From: an uncultured Clostridia bacterium
GTDB lineage: Bacteria > Bacillota > Clostridia > Oscillospirales > CAG-272
DNA: 30,413 nt
NCBI GenBank assembly: GCA_947304475.1
Contig: CAMZBE010000001.1
Span: 1-30,413, forward strand
Direction of reading: 5' to 3'
This document shows, piece by piece, positions 1,876-21,255 of the stretch (positions are counted from its first letter, which is position 1; every line of letters starts with the position of its first letter). The position numbers and the translations under genes were made by a program. Under the pieces are notes generated by a model. It had not been told where the DNA came from and did not search any database. It worked only from the letters and a program-made list of their open reading frames with translations.

Positions 1876-2658
1876 ATGCTTCGTGTTTTGGTGCTCGGCG
1901 ACGTGCTGTCGCCGGCAACGGTCGGCTTTCTCTGCCGTCGGCTTTGGAGTTTCCGGCGTGAAAACAGGGTGGATTTTGCAGTCGTGAACGGCGAGAACGC
2001 CGGGTTCTTGTCCGGGATCGGATCGAAGGACGCCGCGCTGTTGCTTGAGGGCGGCGCCGACTGCATCACCGGCGGGAACCACACCATGGCGGCAAAGTCG
2101 ATTTACCAGACGCTCGAGTCGTCCGACCGGGTGCTGCGCCCGATCAACCTCGCCGACGGCGTACCGGGCGCGGGCTACACGATCCTGCCGGCGCGCGATC
2201 GCCGGATCCTGGTCTTTTCGGCGCTCGGCTGCCTGTTCATGGAGGCGGGGACGCCCGATCCGGTGCCCTATATCGAACGGGTGCTCGCCCGTGAAAAGGG
2301 GCGCTACGACCTCTCGGTCCTCGACCTGCACGCCGAGGCGACCGGCGAAAAGATCGCCGCCGCGTTCCGCCTGGACGGAAAGATCTCGGCGATCTTCGGG
2401 ACGCATACGCACGTACCGACCGCCGACGAGACCGTTCTGCCGATGGGCACCGGCTATATCTCCGACGTCGGCTTCTGCGGCCGTACCGGCGGCGTCCTCG
2501 GCGTAAAAACCGAGGTGATGACCGCCCGACAGAAGACGCGGCTCCGCTATTCCTACGCCGAGGCGGAAGGTTCGTTCCGCGCCCAGGGCGCGCTCTTTGA
2601 TCTGGATGAGGCGACCGGGAAAACCCTTGCGGTGCGCCGCGTCGAATTCGGTGAATGA
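1876..2658 (+). CDS. ymdB: YmdB/TIGR00282-family metallophosphoesterase (260 aa)
   Basis: Motifs GD, NGEN, GNH, DLHAEATGEK and GTHTHVPTAD. Canonical position after rny. GGAGG RBS at 1866-1870 precedes ATG 1876. Confidence 0.92.
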   Translation: MLRVLVLGDVLSPATVGFLCRRLWSFRRENRVDFAVVNGENAGFLSGIGSKDAALLLEGGADCITGGNHTMAAKSIYQTLESSDRVLRPINLADGVPGAGYTILPARDRRILVFSALGCLFMEAGTPDPVPYIERVLAREKGRYDLSVLDLHAEATGEKIAAAFRLDGKISAIFGTHTHVPTADETVLPMGTGYISDVGFCGRTGGVLGVKTEVMTARQKTRLRYSYAEAEGSFRAQGALFDLDEATGKTLAVRRVEFGE

Positions 2659-2681
2659 CAATAGACCTGCGAGGTAACGGG

Positions 2682-5600
2682 ATGCTTTACAAAAAGAACC
2701 GGGAAAAGACGCTCTCGCCCGAACTGTTCCGCGCGCCGACCAGCGAGTACCGCGGCACGCCCTTTTGGGCGTGGAACTGCCGTCTGGAAAAAGAGGAACT
2801 GCTCCGGCAACTCGACGTCATGAAAGAGATGGGCTTCGGCGGTGCGCATATGCACGTCCGCACCGGGCTGGACACCCCCTACCTCTCCGACGAGTTCTTC
2901 GATATGATCGGGGCGTGCATCGACAAATCCGAAAAAGAAGGGATGCTCGCCTGGCTCTACGACGAGGATCGCTGGCCGTCGGGTGCCGCGGGCGGAATCG
3001 TGACCAAGGACGAACGCTTCCGCCAACGCACCCTTTTGTTTACAAAAACCCCCTATCAAGAGGGGGAAGACGGCGGGGGGCTGACCTCTTCGAGTGCCGT
3101 GGCGACGCGAACCGGGAACGGAAAACTGCTTGCCCGCTACGCCGTCCGGCTGAACGGGCGGGGCGAGTTGGCGTCCTACCGGAGGCTGCGGCACGGCGAG
3201 CCAGACGAGGCGCAGGCGGGCGAAGAGATCCGCTATGCCTACCTTGAAACGCCGCGCGAAAATCCCTGGTTCAATAACGAGACCTACCTGAACACCCTCG
3301 ATCCGAAGGCGGTCGCCCGTTTTATCGAGGTGACGCACGAGAGTTACCGCCGTCGCTTCGCGAAGTCCTTCGGGAACGTCGTTCCCGCGATCTTCACCGA
3401 CGAGCCGCAGTTCACGCGCAAGACCGTGCTGCCCTACGCCAAGAGCGACCGCGACGTGACGCTTCCCTTCTCGGACGATCTGGAAGAGACCTTTGCCGCC
3501 GCCTACGGCGCGTCTCTTCTCGACCACCTGCCTGAATTGATCTGGGAACTCCCCGAGGGGGTGTCGAGGATCCGCTATCTCTATCACGACCACGTCGCCG
3601 AACGCTTCTCTTCCGCGTTTGCCGACCAAATCGGCGCGTGGTGCGAGAAAAACGGCTTGATGCTGACCGGGCACATGATGGAAGAACCGACCTTGCGAAG
3701 TCAGACCGCCGCGCTCGGCGAGGCGATGCGCTCCTACCGCTCCTTCCAGTTGCCCGGGATCGATATGCTGCTCGCCCGCCACGAATTTACGACGGCGAAG
3801 CAGGCGCAGTCCGCCGTGCACCAATACGGACGCGAAGGCATGATCAGCGAACTGTACGGCGTGACCGGTTGGGATTACGATTTCCGCGGGCACAAACTGC
3901 ACGGCGACTGGCAAGCCGCGCTGGGCGTGACCGTCCGCGTCCCGCATCTGGCGTGGGTGTCGATGAAGGGCGAGGCAAAACGCGATTACCCCGCCTCGAT
4001 CAACTATCAGTCCCCGTGGTATAAGGAATACCGCGCCGTGGAAGACCACTTCGCGCGCGTCGCCACGGCGTTGACGCGCGGTAAACCGCTGGTGCGCGTG
4101 GGCGTGATCCACCCGGTCGAAAGTTACTGGCTCCACTGGGGCCCCGCCGAGCAGACCGCCGCGATCCGCGAAAAACTCGAGAAACGCTTCTCGTCTCTTG
4201 TCGACTGGCTGCTCTTCGGAACGGTGGATTTCGACTTTATCTCCGAATCGCTCTTCCCATCGCTCTGCCCGGACGCGGACGCGCCGCTCCCGGTCGGAGA
4301 GATGCGCTACGACGTCGTGATCGTTCCGGGCTGTGAAACCCTGCGTTCGACCACGCTCGACCGGCTCGAAACCTTCCGCAAGAAGGGCGGGCGCCTGCTC
4401 TTTCTCGGCGAGGCGCCGCTCTATGAGAACGCTCTGCCGTCCTCGCGCGGGCGGGAACTGTGGGCGTCTTCGGAGGTCGTTTCGTTTGAAAAATGCGATC
4501 TGCTCGCCGCCCTGGAGCCCGTGCGCGAGATCGAGGTGCGCGACGCGTCGGGTTCGCTCTCCGACCGCCTGCTCTCCCAACTTCGTATCGACAGGGACTG
4601 CCGCTGGCTGTTCCTCTCTCAGGGCAGAGATCCCTACAACAAAGACGTTTCGACGCACTCCGACGTGACGGTGACGGTCAACGGGCGCTTCCGCCCCGTC
4701 CTCTACGACACCGAAACCGGAGAGATCTCCCCGCTCCCCTATACGCTCGACGGAAACAAAACGGTTTTCGTCCGCCGCTTCTACGATTGCGACAGTCTGC
4801 TCGTAAAACTGACGCCCGAAGACGGTGCTGCCGCCGGGCAGAACGCGGCGCCCTCGCCGACGAAGCGCGCCGACGTCAACTTCCCCGACACGGTCCCGTA
4901 TTCGCTCTCGGAACCCAACGCGCTGGTGCTCGACTATGCCGAGTACGCCCTTGACCGGGGCGAATTCCGTCCGAAGACCGAGATCCTGCGCATCGACACC
5001 CTGCTCCGCCGCGAACTCGGCTGGCTGAAGGGCGATCGGTGGGACGCCCTGGGTTCGACCGCGCAGCCGTGGGTGCTGCCGCCCGAGATCCCGACGCATA
5101 TCGTTACGCTCCGCTATACGGTTTTGTCCGACGTGGATCTTTCCGCCGTTACCCTTGCGCTCGAGGACGCCGACGTGGCGACCATCGAGTGGAACGGTGC
5201 CCCGGTCGACCGGAAACCGGAGGGGTTTTACGTGGATCGGTGCATTCAATGCGTCTCTTTGCCCGCCGTGAAACGCGGCGTCAATTCGCTGGTCGTAACG
5301 CTGCCCTACGCGAAACGCGTGTCGCTCGAGCGGATGTATCTGCTCGGGGAGTTCGGCGTGGACGTGAACGGGCAGGAGATCAGGTTGGTCGGGAAACGGG
5401 AAAAGGTCGGGTTCGACGATATTACCCGGCTCGGGTTCCCGTTCTTTTCGGGCGCGTTCCGGTATGAGATCCCGTTTGCGTCAAACGGCGAAGAGGTCAC
5501 GCTCACCGTTCCGCATTATCGCGGGGCGCTCGTCACGGCGGAACTCGACGGGAAACCGATCGGGCGGGTGATCTATCCCCCCTACCGGCTTTCGCTCGGT

Positions 5601-5804
5601 GCGCCCGCTGCGGGAACGCATACCCTGACGCTCTCGCTCTTCGTCTCGCGCCAGAACGGCTTCGGCCCCCTGCATAACGCCGACGAGTTCCACCGCGTCA
5701 CCCCCGCAGCCTGGCGTTCGGGCGACGATAAGTGGACCGATTCGTACCGCTTGACAAGAGAAGGAATACTAACCAAACCGATCCTGACCGAAGAGGAAGG
5801 GTAA
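2682..5804 (+). CDS. Large glycoside hydrolase, GH106 (alpha-L-rhamnosidase)-like, no signal peptide (1040 aa)
   Basis: N-terminal PFWAWN...GFGG...WLYDEDRWPSG pattern, FTDEP, SELYG, HLAWVSMKGEAKRDYP, and a C-terminal beta-sandwich region. GAGG RBS at 2671 favours ATG 2682; the ORF is open from 2655. Substrate is not certain. Confidence 0.75.
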   Translation: MLYKKNREKTLSPELFRAPTSEYRGTPFWAWNCRLEKEELLRQLDVMKEMGFGGAHMHVRTGLDTPYLSDEFFDMIGACIDKSEKEGMLAWLYDEDRWPSGAAGGIVTKDERFRQRTLLFTKTPYQEGEDGGGLTSSSAVATRTGNGKLLARYAVRLNGRGELASYRRLRHGEPDEAQAGEEIRYAYLETPRENPWFNNETYLNTLDPKAVARFIEVTHESYRRRFAKSFGNVVPAIFTDEPQFTRKTVLPYAKSDRDVTLPFSDDLEETFAAAYGASLLDHLPELIWELPEGVSRIRYLYHDHVAERFSSAFADQIGAWCEKNGLMLTGHMMEEPTLRSQTAALGEAMRSYRSFQLPGIDMLLARHEFTTAKQAQSAVHQYGREGMISELYGVTGWDYDFRGHKLHGDWQAALGVTVRVPHLAWVSMKGEAKRDYPASINYQSPWYKEYRAVEDHFARVATALTRGKPLVRVGVIHPVESYWLHWGPAEQTAAIREKLEKRFSSLVDWLLFGTVDFDFISESLFPSLCPDADAPLPVGEMRYDVVIVPGCETLRSTTLDRLETFRKKGGRLLFLGEAPLYENALPSSRGRELWASSEVVSFEKCDLLAALEPVREIEVRDASGSLSDRLLSQLRIDRDCRWLFLSQGRDPYNKDVSTHSDVTVTVNGRFRPVLYDTETGEISPLPYTLDGNKTVFVRRFYDCDSLLVKLTPEDGAAAGQNAAPSPTKRADVNFPDTVPYSLSEPNALVLDYAEYALDRGEFRPKTEILRIDTLLRRELGWLKGDRWDALGSTAQPWVLPPEIPTHIVTLRYTVLSDVDLSAVTLALEDADVATIEWNGAPVDRKPEGFYVDRCIQCVSLPAVKRGVNSLVVTLPYAKRVSLERMYLLGEFGVDVNGQEIRLVGKREKVGFDDITRLGFPFFSGAFRYEIPFASNGEEVTLTVPHYRGALVTAELDGKPIGRVIYPPYRLSLGAPAAGTHTLTLSLFVSRQNGFGPLHNADEFHRVTPAAWRSGDDKWTDSYRLTREGILTKPILTEEEG

Positions 5805-5963
5805 GGTCCGGCTGCAACGGACGCAGGAGGAGATTTTCTCTGCGCTTTCTTGTAAGAAAGCGCCCAAAGAACTTCATTATGGGAATATGATAAAGCAAAA
5901 CGGCGTTGCGACGCCGTTTTGCGGTTCTATAGCCTATACCTCGGTTATTATCTTTCCAACGCG

Positions 5964-5990
5964 CGGGGCGTCGAAGACGCCGCCCCCCAC
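5964..5990 (-). repeat. REP-like unit: GTGG foot plus GC-rich imperfect palindrome
   Basis: Minus strand reads GTGGGGGGCGGCGTCTTCGACGCCCCG, fitting the GT(A/G)G-plus-hairpin REP architecture. Confidence 0.45.
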
Positions 5991-6022
5991 GAAGATCGGC
6001 TTTGCCTTTGGCAATCTTTCAC

Positions 6023-6135
6023 GTCGCGCTTGCGCGACAATTCATGCAAACGCAGTTTGCAATTCATGACGGCGTCGCCGTCAATTCACGCGATCGGAGA
6101 TCGCAATTCATGCCGTTGCGATCCGTCGCAACGGC
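6023..6135. repeat. 22-nt-period array: constant AATTCA(T/C) linker between sequence-variable hairpins
   Basis: AATTCA at 6039, 6061, 6083 and 6105. The three internal units are different perfect 6-bp stems with 3-nt loops. Flanking stems are 7 bp (6023-6038) and 10 bp (6112-6135). Confidence 0.85.
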
Positions 6136-6179
6136 TTCCCTTTGTTTCCTTCTCGCCGCCCGCAGGGCGCCGGAAGAAA

Positions 6180-6334
6180 GTTATGAGTTGCGCTGCGGCG
6201 CAACGTTCAGAGTTATGAGAATACCGCCCGACGTGGGCGGCATTCGTTATGAGCAAACCGCGCCGTTGGGCGCGGTCTGCGTTTTGTTCTACCGAAAGCA
6301 AAGAGAACCGTGACGGTTGTGTTTTTGAAACCGC
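6180..6334 (+). repeat. GTTATGAG-hairpin module, copy 1 of a dispersed repeat
   Basis: GTTATGAG at 6180, 6212 and 6246, each followed by a different hairpin. Similar to 21083-21207. Confidence 0.8.
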
Positions 6335-6464
6335 GCACACGAAGAATGAGTGCGCGCTAACTTCATTCCCTAATGAAGTTCTTTGCTCCACTTTCTTACA
6401 AGAAAGTGGACGTACCTCTCGTTTCTCTCCCCCCCGGGGGGCGGTGTTGAAAAATTCTTTGTTT

Positions 6465-7184
6465 TCAGTCGATTTTGAGTTTTTTTATTCTTCTCTTTGC
6501 CCTGCCGACGTCGCGGAGCATCCGGCGGGTATCGCGGAAGAAACGAATGGTGGACGGGCGGTGATTGACGATCTTCACGGGGAGTTCTCCGAAGACGAAA
6601 CCGCACTTCTGCCCGATCTTGATCGCTTCGTAATCGAAGGCGAAACGGTCGACCTCACAGAGCGAAAAGATCTTTTTCGCCGCGGCGCGGCGGAACCCTT
6701 TCAATCCGGTCTGCGAGTCCGAAAGCGACAGTCCGCCCCAGAACCGGAGCAGGGACAGATAGGTTTTCGAGACGATCTTCCGGGCAAAGGAATAGCCGGC
6801 GTACCCTTCGGGGTGCTTGACGCGGGAACCGACCACGGCGTCGAACTCGGGGTGTTCGTCGAAGAGGTTGACCATCTCGGCAACGACGTCCAGTCCGTAG
6901 GCAAGATCGCAGTCGGTAAAAATGATATAATCGCCCTCTCCCGCAAGCATTCCCTGCCGGACGGCGCAGCCCTTGCCGCGGTTGGGTTGGTAGGAAAGAT
7001 ACCGGACGGGACCGGTACAGAGTTCGTCCAGGATTGCTTTGGAACGGTCGGTCGAGCCGTCGTCTACAAAAATAACCTCGTACTGACCGGGAAACGCGGC
7101 TTCCATATAGGACGAAACGGCGCCGATCGTTTCGCGCAGGATCGTCTCTTCGTTATAGAGCGGGATAACGAGCGTAACTTTCAT
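6465..7184 (-). CDS. GT2-family glycosyltransferase, polyprenol-phosphate glycosyltransferase (DPM/DPG-synthase)-like (239 aa)
   Basis: VIPLYNE, VDDGSTD, NRGKG, FTDCD (DxD), DSQTGLKGF and FAFDYE motifs. Confidence 0.88.
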   Translation of the reverse strand: MKVTLVIPLYNEETILRETIGAVSSYMEAAFPGQYEVIFVDDGSTDRSKAILDELCTGPVRYLSYQPNRGKGCAVRQGMLAGEGDYIIFTDCDLAYGLDVVAEMVNLFDEHPEFDAVVGSRVKHPEGYAGYSFARKIVSKTYLSLLRFWGGLSLSDSQTGLKGFRRAAAKKIFSLCEVDRFAFDYEAIKIGQKCGFVFGELPVKIVNHRPSTIRFFRDTRRMLRDVGRAKRRIKKLKID

Positions 7185-7312: not shown

Positions 7313-7394
7313 AGAATATAAACATTTTTTAATAAAGTATAAATTATAGTACGCGCGAAGACGACGGCTGATGCCGAAGGGAAAGGAACGCCCG

Positions 7395-8807
7395 ATGGAT
7401 ACGTTGAAAGATATTGGTTCGGCGGTGCTCGAACAACTGAAACAGAAGTTCACGCCCACCATCTACGAACTGTGGTTTAAGAGTTTACAGTTGGTCTCGC
7501 TTGACGGTGACGTCGCGGTCTTTTCGACCGACAGCAACTTTAAGCAGGATCTGATCAGCAAGCGCCACGTCGGCTCGATCCGGGACGCGCTCCGCGAGGT
7601 GGTCGGCTTCGACGTGAAGGTTATCATCGAGTCGCGGGAAGGGAGCGAAGGGTTCCACATTCCGGAAATTGAAGACAAGCCCGAAGAAAAGAAGACCGTG
7701 CCGCTTCTGCCCGACGATCCCGAACCCAAAACCATTGATCCCGAGTCCGCGATCGAGAGCAGTTCGATCGTCGACGAATACACCTTCGAGAACTTTATCG
7801 AAGGGGAGTCCAACCGCTTCGCGCTTGCCGCCTGCCGCGCGGTCGCGCTCTATTCGAGTTCTCCCGACAAGAACGACGAGATGGACGTTTCGACCTACAA
7901 TCCCCTGTTCATCTACGGTCCGAGCGGCGTCGGCAAAACGCACCTGCTTTTCGCGGTGACAAACGAGATCAAGCGTAAGAACCCGAAGTGCAAAATCGTC
8001 TATAAAAAGAGTGAAGAGTTTACAAACGAACTGATCGCCAGTCTGCAGAACGGTACGCAGGACCGGTTTCGTCAGCATTACCGCAACGCCGACGTGCTGC
8101 TGATCGACGACGTGCAGTTCATCGCCGGCAAAGAATCGACGCAAGAAGAGTTCTTCCACACTTTCTCCGCTCTCTACGAGAACGGCAAACAGATTATTCT
8201 GACCTCCGACCGTCCGCCGAAGGACATCAAGACGCTGGAGGACCGTCTGCTCACCCGGTTCATCTGGGGACTGCTCGCCGACATTCAGCCGCCGAGTTTT
8301 GAACTTCGCACCGCCATCATCAATAAAAAAGCGGAAAACCTGAAAATCTCGATCCCGAGCGAGGTAGTCGAATATCTGGCGACCAAACTCCAGAACAATA
8401 TCCGCCAAATTGAAGGATCCATCAAGCGGATCGCCGCCATCAGTCTTCTGACCGGATCCCCCATCACAACCGATCTTTGTCGCCGCGCGATCTCGGACAT
8501 TCTTTCGGGCAACGAGCCGGTGGACGTCACGGTCGACCGGATCATCACGCTGGTTTCCAAGCGGCTGAATATCCCGGTCGAGGACATCCGGGCAAAACGC
8601 AGAACGGCAAACGTCGTCAACGCCCGTCATATCTGTATTTACATGATCCGTCAACTCTCCGACGTCTCGTTCAATACTCTGGGCGAGATTTTCGAGCGAG
8701 ATCACGCGACCATCATGGCGGCTTTCCGGAAGGTGGAAGCGGCGATTGCCGCAGATCCCGAATTTGCCGCGCTCGTCAACGGCATGATGGACGAGATACG
8801 GAACTGA
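7395..8807 (+). CDS. dnaA: Chromosomal replication initiator DnaA (470 aa)
   Basis: YTFENFIEGESNRFA, Walker A GPSGVGKT, LLIDDVQF, TQEEFFHTF, IRQIEG, and domain IV RDH. GAAAGGA RBS precedes ATG 7395. Confidence 0.98.
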   Translation: MDTLKDIGSAVLEQLKQKFTPTIYELWFKSLQLVSLDGDVAVFSTDSNFKQDLISKRHVGSIRDALREVVGFDVKVIIESREGSEGFHIPEIEDKPEEKKTVPLLPDDPEPKTIDPESAIESSSIVDEYTFENFIEGESNRFALAACRAVALYSSSPDKNDEMDVSTYNPLFIYGPSGVGKTHLLFAVTNEIKRKNPKCKIVYKKSEEFTNELIASLQNGTQDRFRQHYRNADVLLIDDVQFIAGKESTQEEFFHTFSALYENGKQIILTSDRPPKDIKTLEDRLLTRFIWGLLADIQPPSFELRTAIINKKAENLKISIPSEVVEYLATKLQNNIRQIEGSIKRIAAISLLTGSPITTDLCRRAISDILSGNEPVDVTVDRIITLVSKRLNIPVEDIRAKRRTANVVNARHICIYMIRQLSDVSFNTLGEIFERDHATIMAAFRKVEAAIAADPEFAALVNGMMDEIRN

Positions 8808-9060: not shown

Positions 9061-9143
9061 CTTCTTTCTTTTTCCCGCGTTTGCAAAACCATTCAGATAA
9101 ATAAATGCCAAAGACCGGAACCGTCCGGCGGAAAGGAACGACC

Positions 9144-10325
9144 ATGAAGGTTATTTTTTCAAAACCCGCGCTGCTTGAAGGACTTGTCCCCACGATGAGC
9201 ACAGTCTCCAGTAAAAACACCATCACTCCGATCGAAGGTATTCTGATTGAAACCATCGGAGAGACCTCCGTTCGCCTTTCCTCGTACGATATGAACAAAG
9301 GTATGCGGACGACGGTCGAGGCAATCTCTATTATTGAGGAAGGAACCTGCATCATCAACGCACAGCGTCTTCTGCAGATCGTCAAACTGCTCGGCGAGGA
9401 CGAGATCACGTTGGAGATCGGCGACGATCACAAGGCGTCTATTTCCGCCGGTGCGTCGTCCTTCTCTCTGCAGTCTCTTCCCGGCTCGGACTTTCCGAAC
9501 CTTCCCGAACTGTCGGGCGACACCGGATTTGCGGTCTCCGCCGGCGTTTTGAAACGCATGATCGGGAAAGTGCTGCACTCGATTGCCGAACAGGACAGCC
9601 GTCAGATGCTCTGCGGCGCGTTCTTCACGGTTGAAGGAAAGAGAATGGATATCGTCTCCTGCGACGGCTATACGCTCTCCAAATGCCACGTAGAAAGCGA
9701 TATTCAGGATATCGGGCGTATTTCGTCCACCCATTTCTCGTTCATCATTCCGGGACACGCTCTGAACGAAATGATCAGGATTCTGCCCGACAAGGACGAA
9801 GAGGCGAAGATCTATCTGTCGAGAAAACACGCGATCATGGAACTCAAAGACATGGTTTTCTTTACCCGTATGATCGACAGCGAGTATATGGACTATCAGC
9901 GCATTCTGCCGAAAGCGCAGGATATTTTCGTGAAGATTGATCGCGAACGGCTGATGGAAGGACTTGAAAGAGCCAATCTGGTCGCCGAAGAAAAGATTCA
10001 GGGCAACGGAAAGTCCTACGTCAAAATCGAGATCAAAGGCAACACGTTCAGTCTTTCTTCCAACTCGGTCAACGGCTACGTTTACGACGAGATGGAATGT
10101 GAACACGAGGGAGAGGACATCGCGATCGGTTTCAACTGCCGGTTCCTGATCAACAGCATCAGAGCGGCGGAAGGCAAACGGATCTATATGACCTTGAAGA
10201 GCCCTACGCAGTCCATCACGGTCGAACCGGTCGAAGAAGAATGGGACGAGAAGGACGGTTTCCGTTACTTCTACATGATCCTGCCGGTCAGAATGAACGA
10301 GCAGCCGACGGCGGAAGAAGAATAA
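9144..10325 (+). CDS. dnaN: DNA polymerase III beta sliding clamp (393 aa)
   Basis: Follows dnaA. Motifs GILIE, FPNLPE, DGYTL, YMDYQRILP, IGFNCRFLI and ILPVR. GAAAGGA RBS precedes ATG 9144. Confidence 0.96.
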   Translation: MKVIFSKPALLEGLVPTMSTVSSKNTITPIEGILIETIGETSVRLSSYDMNKGMRTTVEAISIIEEGTCIINAQRLLQIVKLLGEDEITLEIGDDHKASISAGASSFSLQSLPGSDFPNLPELSGDTGFAVSAGVLKRMIGKVLHSIAEQDSRQMLCGAFFTVEGKRMDIVSCDGYTLSKCHVESDIQDIGRISSTHFSFIIPGHALNEMIRILPDKDEEAKIYLSRKHAIMELKDMVFFTRMIDSEYMDYQRILPKAQDIFVKIDRERLMEGLERANLVAEEKIQGNGKSYVKIEIKGNTFSLSSNSVNGYVYDEMECEHEGEDIAIGFNCRFLINSIRAAEGKRIYMTLKSPTQSITVEPVEEEWDEKDGFRYFYMILPVRMNEQPTAEEE

Positions 10326-21082: not shown

Positions 21083-21207
21083 GTTATGAGTTGCGCCGAG
21101 GCGCAACGTCCAGAACGATGAGAATGCCGCCCGTTTTCGGGCGGCATTCGTTTTTTTTGTTATACCGCGGGCAAAGAGAACCGCGGCGCCCGCGTTTTTG
21201 AAACCGC
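21083..21207 (+). repeat. GTTATGAG-hairpin module, copy 2
   Basis: Hand alignment: 21083-21133 vs 6180-6230 is 44/51 identical; 21139-21152 equals 6235-6248; 21155-21207 vs 6282-6334 is 43/53 identical. Lacks the third hairpin of copy 1. Confidence 0.8.
21122..21158 (+). terminator. Intrinsic terminator formed inside repeat copy 2
   Basis: Perfect 12-bp stem 21122-21133/21138-21149 followed by G and 8 T. Confidence 0.8.
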
Positions 21208-21239: not shown

Positions 21240-21255
21240 TGTTTCACGTGAAACG
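21240..21255. promoter_or_regulatory. parS centromere site (15/16 match)
   Basis: TGTTTCACGTGAAACG vs the consensus TGTTTCACGTGAAACA. Confidence 0.85.

Follow-up and report, generated by a model that had tools for sequence, protein, structure and literature searches.

A constant-word hairpin array of gut Clostridia as a copy of a dispersed repeat family whose complete members adjoin PF05635 genes

The Gut-1 motif (Rfam RF01706) was catalogued in 2010 without organism, neighbor or function (Weinberg et al., 2010; PMC2864571). The motif consists of three to five short variable hairpins that are joined by a constant 7-nt linker, and derives from gut metagenomes. The same architecture and the same habitat characterize the array described here, which occupies positions 6023–6135 of a 30,413-nt stretch of DNA (the window). 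The window is contig C1 of a 1.53-Mb metagenome-assembled genome (MAG) from an uncultured member of the Clostridia, which is 83% complete and comprises 266 contigs. In the array, short hairpins of differing sequence alternate with copies of the word AATTCAY, and the array is a copy of a dispersed family of gut and rumen Clostridia. The Gut-1 linker RUGAAAU reads ATTTCAY on the other strand, which is one base from the window's word. The RF01706 covariance model was compared with a member of the family that uses the word TATTTCA (locus L176) and that, as a cassette, includes two arrays, termed arms: both arms matched, with 64.4 and 51.4 bits (gathering score 50). The window gave no match at the gathering score, and none at E-values up to 10 on 5750–6500. 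Furthermore, the window differs from Gut-1 in its word and in its GC-rich stems, and the strand favored by the loops is opposite to the strand that was modeled. As the architecture is the same but the word is one base off and RF01706 does not match, the window's class is considered a sister class of Gut-1 and not a member. The family as a whole, a relative of Gut-1 with ties to PF05635 genes, is essentially undescribed: a full-text literature search, whose coverage was incomplete and which is no proof of novelty, retrieved no paper linking PF05635 to hairpin arrays.

The intervening sequences (IVS) in 23S rRNA of Coxiella and Leptospira that encode S23p also carry a small PF05635 four-helix-bundle gene as the only open reading frame (ORF) of a short selfish element with inverted-repeat bounds, and in Coxiella tandem heptamers lie upstream of the ORF (PMC4990558). 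The likeness is evident in the window genome on contig C134, where a PF05635 gene is placed between two inverted arrays. However, copies of the present family lie outside rRNA, their ends are arrays of words and hairpins rather than a plain 28-bp stem, and the gene was lost from, or never present in, many copies, including that of the window. bAvd of diversity-generating retroelements (DGRs) belongs to the same protein fold family as the PF05635 proteins; it is a basic pentamer of four-helix-bundle fold that, jointly with reverse transcriptase, binds nucleic acid. In contrast to these retroelements, no reverse transcriptase, template repeat or variable repeat lies beside the cassettes.

Repetitive extragenic palindromic (REP) elements, bacterial interspersed mosaic elements (BIMEs) and REPINs with RAYT proteins in Proteobacteria are likewise clusters of short GC-rich extragenic palindromes with constant motifs between the palindromes. 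Each genome harbors many copies, predominantly near gene 3′ ends, and their active form is presumed to be a single-stranded hairpin. Whereas the REP palindrome is conserved and alternates in orientation, the window family conserves the linker, lets the palindrome vary freely and keeps one orientation within each arm; in addition, no RAYT was found in the window genome. The attC sites of integrons are single imperfect hairpins of 57–141 nt with extrahelical bases that are read by IntI. They resemble the window family in the recognition of a folded strand with few conserved bases, as is proposed here, in their strand-specific form and in their small variable cassettes, but the hairpins of the window family are perfect, 12–24 nt long and arranged in series. 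The TAACTGA heptamer repeats of Beggiatoaceae (PMC4679880) were considered and rejected as relatives, being plain tandem heptamers without hairpins.

Anatomy, grammar and dispersal of the arrays

The array comprises five perfect hairpins alternating with four copies of the word, all on the forward strand. Hairpin 1 (6023–6038) has a 6-bp stem and a CTTG loop, and is followed by word 1, AATTCAT (6039–6045), which C6038 precedes and G6046 follows. Hairpin 2, GCAAAC-GCA-GTTTGC (6046–6060), has a 6-bp stem and a GCA triloop with a C-G closing pair. Word 2, AATTCAT (6061–6067), separates it from hairpin 3, GACGGC-GTC-GCCGTC (6068–6082; 6-bp stem, GTC loop), and word 3, AATTCAC (6083–6089), leads to hairpin 4, GCGATC-GGA-GATCGC (6090–6104; 6-bp stem, GGA triloop). 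Word 4, AATTCAT (6105–6111), precedes hairpin 5 (6112–6135), which has a 10-bp stem and a 4-nt loop and is followed by a terminator-like T/C-rich tail. A preliminary description of the locus had noted AATTCA at 6039, 6061, 6083 and 6105 with hairpins of 6-bp stem and 3-nt loop in between. These elements are present as claimed, although the three inner hairpins are not the total, since the outer hairpins at 6023–6038 and 6112–6135 also belong to the array.

Each word is preceded by C and followed by G so that the true constant part is C-AATTCAY-G. The motif CAATTCAYG occurs four times in the window against 0.42 expected, all inside the array and confined to the forward strand, and none of 100 shuffles reached four occurrences. 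The array strand folds into exactly the five hairpins with either DNA or RNA parameters, with energies of −39.4 kcal/mol (z −6.0) and −53 kcal/mol (z −4.2), respectively, that no shuffle equaled. Tandem Repeats Finder did not report the array when run on the window because the units, which share the word alone, are too dissimilar. An Rfam scan of the window revealed no rRNA, and no ORF lies inside the array; a small ORF running through the array was rejected as the spacing is out of frame. The pyrimidine-rich tail at 6136–6160 on the same strand is common to paralogous copies and ends the repeated module in an alignment of contigs C1, C109 and C195. Pyrimidine-rich tracts of this type (TTCCCTT, TCTCCC, CCCTCGTCC) also end arms on C42, C44, C90 and C201 of the window genome. 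The tract resembles an anti-Shine-Dalgarno sequence, and the opposite strand reads a ribosome-binding site followed by ATG.

Across the family, 160 of 254 distinct arms have exactly four words, with 44 arms containing five words and 19 containing three. This limit to about four words does not agree with the open-ended or polarized growth that had been envisaged. Word-to-word distances in the 254 arms lie between 14 and 42 nt and peak at 16, 20 and 22 nt. Thus, the exact 22-nt period proposed initially holds for the window copy but not for the family, and the suggestion that the linkers fall on one helical face is not borne out. Of the distinct inter-word segments, 438 in number, 418 start with G and 408 end with C. 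A perfect stem of at least 4 bp anchored at the segment ends is present in 56% of 488 distinct segments from many genomes compared to 0.7% of shuffled segments. In units of 15 nt, to which those of the window belong, all four Watson-Crick pairs are found at stem positions 2–5, and the outer G-C pair and the C-G pair that closes the loop hardly vary. Furthermore, a compensatory T:A to C:G change in hairpin 1, carried by the C195 copy, distinguishes the paralogous copies on C109 and C195. The stem frequencies, the range of pairs and the compensatory change support the structure-level selection inferred previously. The window array conforms to the family grammar, with a constant word, variable mini-hairpins clamped by G and C, and about four words in the arm. 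No second arm with the reverse-complement word is present near the array and the adjoining array has another word. It is therefore a solo arm.

In the window genome, AATTCAY words in groups of three or more form no fewer than 14 arrays, and CAATTCA/TGAATTG is the 7-mer that clusters most often. Three further words form arrays in this genome: GTTATGAG, RTGATGT (ACATCAY on the other strand) and ATATCG. The copies on C109 and C195 have the same five hairpins in the same order within a ~300-nt shared module, and alignment showed that their flanks are unrelated. The copy on C25 retains units 1–2, has a 10-nt palindromic insertion in unit 2 that lengthens the hairpin corresponding to 6068–6082, and has different hairpins 3–4. 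The earlier idea that units are added or rewritten thus is upheld in part, with respect to rewriting. Hairpin arrays with the ATATCG word immediately adjoin the AATTCAY arms on C109 (locus L158) and C25 (locus L157), and different word classes therefore are stacked in the same gaps.

Ten of 24 congeneric genomes carry a pattern of three words, as does one of 16 other families of the order, and a reversed control pattern produced no hits in the congener search. In a species-representative collection the pattern was present in at least 120 contigs, of which 86 pass a strict hairpin test; the pattern search that had been suggested thus revealed similar arrays in abundance, in clear conflict with the refuting condition of the preliminary description that none exist elsewhere. 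Nearly all of the 86 confirmed contigs belong to Clostridia that inhabit animal guts. Among the matches listed, the named carriers are Oscillospiraceae, Acutalibacteraceae, Christensenellales, Ca. Scatosoma and other clostridial MAGs, recovered from the guts of ruminants, horses, mice and humans. Pattern matches in SAR324, Ferruginibacter, Collimonas, Prevotella and Microcystis were rejected as they are not hairpin arrays. A true AATTCAY hairpin array is situated at ~3479–3526 of a contig (JAFYJW010000056.1) from a Synergistes-labeled MAG of buffalo abomasum, which reflects either a binning error or transfer outside the Clostridia. The window's sequence itself is present in public bovine, sheep and goat gut metagenomes. 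When strains were compared by means of public runs, the contigs were found to end within the repeats, and paralogous copies were indistinguishable from variants between strains. Ten congeners with an orthologue of the GT2 glycosyltransferase gene to the right of the array possess an ordinary terminator behind that gene and no array; the array therefore was gained in the window lineage. A scan of IMG/VR returned 36 pattern matches, of which seven pass the strict hairpin test and a few others narrowly miss it, and no PF05635 gene was found in the retrieved flanks of the matches. The array region, which the preliminary description had proposed to compare with phage and plasmid sequences, matched no phage or plasmid record; the 6-bp stems are too short for a spacer-type search. 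On C183 of the window genome (locus L155, 3202–3380), the space between atpD and atpC of the ATP synthase operon is filled by an array of the ACATCATT / AATGATGT word class, whose mRNA-sense reading is ACAUCAUU.

Association with PF05635 genes

Inspection of the genes that neighbor such arrays, as also had been proposed, revealed that complete copies adjoin PF05635 genes. The window genome has two PF05635 genes, on C134 and C197, and each is next to arrays whose word is RTGATGT. The C134 gene lies between two inverted arms, a layout that was seen in the window genome on this contig only. No PF05635 gene is adjacent to the window array, which is flanked by an ORF without a Pfam family and by the GT2 glycosyltransferase gene. 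Fifty distinct PF05635 neighborhoods were assembled from those genomes of the order that carry the gene (27 of 41 searched). An arrayed 6-mer was present in 43 of the 50 neighborhoods, and in 29 both the word and its exact reverse complement were arrayed. Hairpin arrays were located upstream of 18 of 30 PF05635 genes compared to 11 of 60 neighboring ORFs of the same loci, a conservative control as the neighbors share the same intergenic regions.

Cassettes differ in their word, and no fewer than 14 classes of word are represented beside PF05635 genes. The cassette words include ATATCAC, GCTAAAT, GCTTCAT, CTTCATT, CTTCACT, TATTTCA, GATTTCA and ACATCAT, as well as TATCATC, ATATCGC, GATTACA, AATACCA, AATATAAC, TCATAAC and TGAATTG. 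Whatever the word, both arms of any one cassette always share it, which would mean that the word is read by something that differs between cassettes. The sole constant gene of the cassettes is PF05635. The closest solved relative of the protein family is 2rld (E 4.8e-27), with five chains in the entry, and S23p has been described as a homopentameric toroid of four-helix bundles (PMC4990558). It is a speculative notion that the four to five words of an arm would fit one pentameric ring per arm.

In relatives of the window genome the AATTCAY arms are part of a ~270-nt dispersed composite that consists, in order, of a terminator hairpin, an arm with the RTGAATTG word, a short center, an arm with the CAATTCAY word and an end hairpin. 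In two genomes, G017 and G023, two-armed AATTCAY arrays directly precede a gene of ~120 codons whose product is a PF05635 protein (23S rRNA-intervening sequence protein; E 3e-27). As the last word of the gene-proximal arm in AATTCAY-word cassettes is ~17 nt before the start codon, this arm must lie in the 5′ leader. In a typical cassette, one or more tRNA genes and a terminator precede the left and then the right arm; a promoter-like TGnTATAAT and a ribosome-binding site come next, followed by the PF05635 gene and, after it, a small gene that varies.

Other arrangements were observed. On C32 of the window genome (locus L147, 384–560 and 6560–6700), AATTCAY arms of the gene-proximal type are followed by the same ribosome-binding site and first codons, ATG AAA GAA, that PF05635 cassettes of relatives have. 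The ORF that continues after the arm is different, namely a membrane protein without a Pfam family, and elsewhere a NUDIX gene, which gives the impression of a fusion of the arm and start site to other genes. In genome G026 (contig C6, locus L164), a PF05635 gene is flanked by two identical direct four-word GCTAAAT arms with an inverted ATTTAGC arm after the second, unlike both the form with arms in front of the gene and that with the gene between arms. A ladder-like fold that pairs the words of two arms was discarded because its prediction for L176 is not robust; the frequency of the minimum-energy structure of this locus is 0.0001.

Strand asymmetry and competing explanations

The loops distinguish the two strands of an arm. 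On the strand that reads …TCAY, GNA triloops outnumber TNC triloops by 95 to 14 (p 6e-16) and GNRA tetraloops outnumber the complementary type by 27 to 1. Internal mismatches on this strand are G:T in 17 cases and A:C in five (p 0.017), with some of the cases representing related copies. The GTTATGA and GCTAAAT classes exhibit a loop bias of opposite sign, albeit with few data, which suggests that the functional strands of these classes read TCATAAC and ATTTAGC. Triloops account for 60% of array loops compared to 15% of those in the terminator-like hairpins of the same genome, and the loop-closing pair is C-G in 76% of array loops; C-GNA-G is the classical hyperstable DNA mini-hairpin. G:U pairs constitute 2.0% of pairs in arrays versus 4.7% in the terminators of the window genome. 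When counted on minimum-energy folds of the two strands, G:U pairs numbered 58 versus 44 and gave no clear strand signal. The orientation of 62 solo arms from many genomes was random with respect to co-directional flanking genes (14 same, 26 opposite). Arms had appeared sense-biased in the window genome, but this bias was gone in the larger multi-genome sample. In complete cassettes, the favored strands of the two arms point outward from a center of 25–45 nt without promoter-like sequence. Overall, loop chemistry and position lean to folded single-stranded DNA over RNA.

The preferred explanation, with a probability of about 0.55, is that the window array is a solo, gene-less arm of a dispersed, probably mobile modular repeat family that presents its words on one strand to a class-specific pentameric protein. 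The unit is a constant 7–9-nt word, here C-AATTCAY-G, plus a short GC-clamped hairpin of free sequence, and an arm typically holds four words and five hairpins. A complete member possesses two inverted arms beside or around a small PF05635 gene, which specifies an Avd-like four-helix bundle, and each such gene has a private word. On one specific strand, the folded hairpins would keep the A/T-rich words single-stranded at regular intervals, and the four words of the arm would be read by the ring-shaped, presumably pentameric, four-helix-bundle protein of the complete cassette that is specific for the class. Folded single-stranded DNA is preferred to RNA as the form that would be read. The anatomy, the membership and dispersal of the family, the covariation in stems, the strand asymmetry of loops and the link to PF05635 genes are established by the data, and we infer the reader of the word, the choice between the DNA and RNA forms and the way in which copies spread. 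In the window, the arm most likely is now a passive hairpin cluster between convergent genes, either a relic or dependent on functions in trans, with some effect as a terminator or insulator.

A number of observations weigh against this explanation. The word and the gene are physically linked, and co-inheritance alone could produce their correlation. No array is present at 7 of the 50 PF05635 genes. The window genome has many AATTCAY and GTTATGAG arms, but both of its PF05635 genes have the RTGATGT word, and no PF05635 gene with an AATTCAY or GTTATGAG word was found in the assembled 83% of the genome. Several well-assembled congeners also carry AATTCAY composites without a matching PF05635 gene. 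As AATTCAY arrays occur in many genomes whose assembled part has no PF05635 gene of that word, a cognate reader is not needed for persistence: solo arms may be relics, may be served in trans, or the PF05635 protein may not be their reader. The binding of nucleic acid by the PF05635 proteins of the family is a proposal. No recombinase, transposase or target-site duplication was found, and mobility therefore is deduced solely from dispersal in multiple copies. Finally, one metatranscriptome holds 21% of the sampled words of 5990–6300, and GNRA and CUUG loops as well as the G:T excess fit RNA too.

A broader and more tentative proposition is that the arrays and PF05635 proteins constitute a new selfish nucleoprotein system in which a pentameric Avd-like ring reads four to five copies of a private 7–9-nt word between DNA mini-hairpins of one strand, with many orthogonal word/protein pairs coexisting in gut Clostridia and spread without a transposase of its own. 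If true, the selfish-system interpretation would explain how S23p-bearing intervening sequences enter rRNA genes and would account for the orphan Gut-1 motif. Two orphans would acquire a shared context, namely this motif and the PF05635 family, whose structure is solved and which has no known role outside the Avd proteins of DGRs. The grammar is unusual among bacterial repeats in combining a single-stranded constant word, free hairpins, four words per arm, mirrored arms and a private word per gene. Such a combination suggests that a small helical protein ring reads a folded single strand in a sequence-specific manner. Truly orthogonal pairs would form a natural set of compact programmable docking modules of nucleic acid and protein. 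The window array in this context is a repeat copy and not a locus-specific regulator, which also explains why assemblies of these MAGs break at such sites.

The same metatranscriptome words, tetraloops and G:T excess favor an alternative, here viewed as rather unlikely, in which the array is an RNA element and sister of the Gut-1 small RNA motif. A transcript in the AAUUCAY sense would display four single-stranded words and would offer a decoy or a docking site to a protein, which by analogy with Avd and DGR RNA may be the same four-helix bundle, or would function in processing or stability. It is consistent with this alternative that the Rfam model which matches both arms of the TATTTCA cassette is filed as a small RNA, that strand asymmetry is natural for RNA, that most arms of the window genome come after a co-oriented stop codon, and that the gene-proximal arm of AATTCAY cassettes must lie in the 5′ leader. 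However, the orientation of arms relative to flanking genes is random across genomes, and the favored strands of cassette arms face outward from the promoter-less center. The window arm is located behind a terminator-like hairpin, and a promoter scan of the window found none on the array's strand. In addition, the dominance of triloops and the use of G:U at less than half the level in terminators speak against an RNA element, the strand of the Rfam model (RUGAAAU) is opposite to the strand that the loops favor, and four public runs that were mapped to the window provided no RNA coverage of the array.

It is improbable that the array is a mere hairpin cluster that terminates or stabilizes two convergent transcripts, a product of duplication in place and compensatory drift whose linkers have no specific reader. 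Consistent with this alternative are the position between convergent genes (stop codons at 5804 and 6465), the T-rich tail of the last hairpin, and a related module at 21083 that begins 2 nt past a stop codon and finishes in a T8 run. Hairpin clusters reportedly were proposed as terminators in one earlier study. In an intrinsic terminator a U-run follows the hairpin in the sense of the upstream gene; in the array hairpin 5 alone has a T-rich tail, and the orientation of the family relative to genes is random. However, this alternative leaves unexplained why a 9-nt word stays identical between genera and families although the stems vary freely, why the number of words is fixed at four, why the loops favor one strand irrespective of gene direction, and why words pair specifically with PF05635 genes. 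Moreover, near-identical copies exist at unlinked loci, and thus the array did not arise in place.

HUH cleavage and rejoining had been raised in the preliminary description; handling of a REP/BIME-type element by an HUH enzyme (Y1, RAYT or IS200/IS605-like) that cuts beside hairpins of single-stranded DNA is very improbable. The logic is similar in that a short conserved motif accompanies a hairpin, the single-stranded form is strand-specific and the sites are intergenic with a 3′ bias. However, the Y1 transposase domain (Y1_Tnp, PF01797) was not found in the 83%-complete genome whereas control genomes were positive, the stems are not conserved and there is no GTAG head, all units of an arm run in one direction unlike those of BIMEs, and the constant neighbor of complete copies is PF05635 rather than a transposase.

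A guide-RNA array, either CRISPR-like, as the layout had first been called, or of the TIGR-Tas type, is scarcely credible: the constant and variable parts alternate superficially and TIGR stem-loop arrays also have variable palindromes, but the constant part is 9 nt long compared to CRISPR repeats of at least 23 nt, the variable parts are self-complementary and hence not spacers, which in CRISPR are non-palindromic, the 3–4-nt loops of the family have no room for the two 8–12-nt spacers flanked by box C/D motifs in the loops of TIGR units (PMC12045711), the Nop-domain gene (PF01798) which characterizes the adjacent Tas gene was not found in the window genome, the arrays are scattered over many loci rather than beside an effector gene, and the region has no phage or plasmid match. 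A K-turn or box C/D reading of RTGATGT-type words was rejected as the orientation is inconsistent and a partner strand is absent. A partner reverse transcriptase also was discarded: the only such enzyme in the genome is a C-terminal fragment on C53 that is unlinked to any array. This fragment (RVT_1, E 7e-15) is at the contig start (locus L261, 3–1306) and is succeeded by an HTH_3 protein, with no array or PF05635 gene linked in the assembly.

Setting of the array in the window

The array is situated in a 660-nt gap between two convergent genes, and the whole gap is full of hairpins. The left neighbor is an ORF of 1049 codons (2655–5804) with a strong coding signal and no Pfam family at E 0.001, and the right neighbor is the GT2 glycosyltransferase gene on the minus strand whose stop is at 6465. 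A ~45-bp inverted repeat with members at 5842–5886 and 6366–6410, both identified by inverted-repeat search, brackets the hairpin-rich stretch, and its left member is the start of the ~300-nt module common to C109 and C195. Between the stop at 5804 and the array, a 12-bp hairpin at 5895–5922 is preceded by an A-run and followed by a T-run and thereby resembles a bidirectional terminator. The adjoining second array at 6180–6290 on the forward strand uses the other word, with three copies of GTTATGAG and variable hairpins; it ends in a hairpin and T-run, and copies are present on C86 and C2.

The dnaA (7371–8807) and dnaN (9105–10325) genes, both on the forward strand, are located ~1 kb to the right of the hairpin-rich gap. 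The segment 7185–10325 is a replication-origin neighborhood, and the GC skew becomes positive near 10 kb. The second window copy of the GTTATGAG-word module, which is the related module mentioned above, occupies 21083–21207 on the forward strand. Just behind this module, beside parAB, a parS-like palindromic site, TGTTTCACGTGAAAC, is found at 21240–21255.

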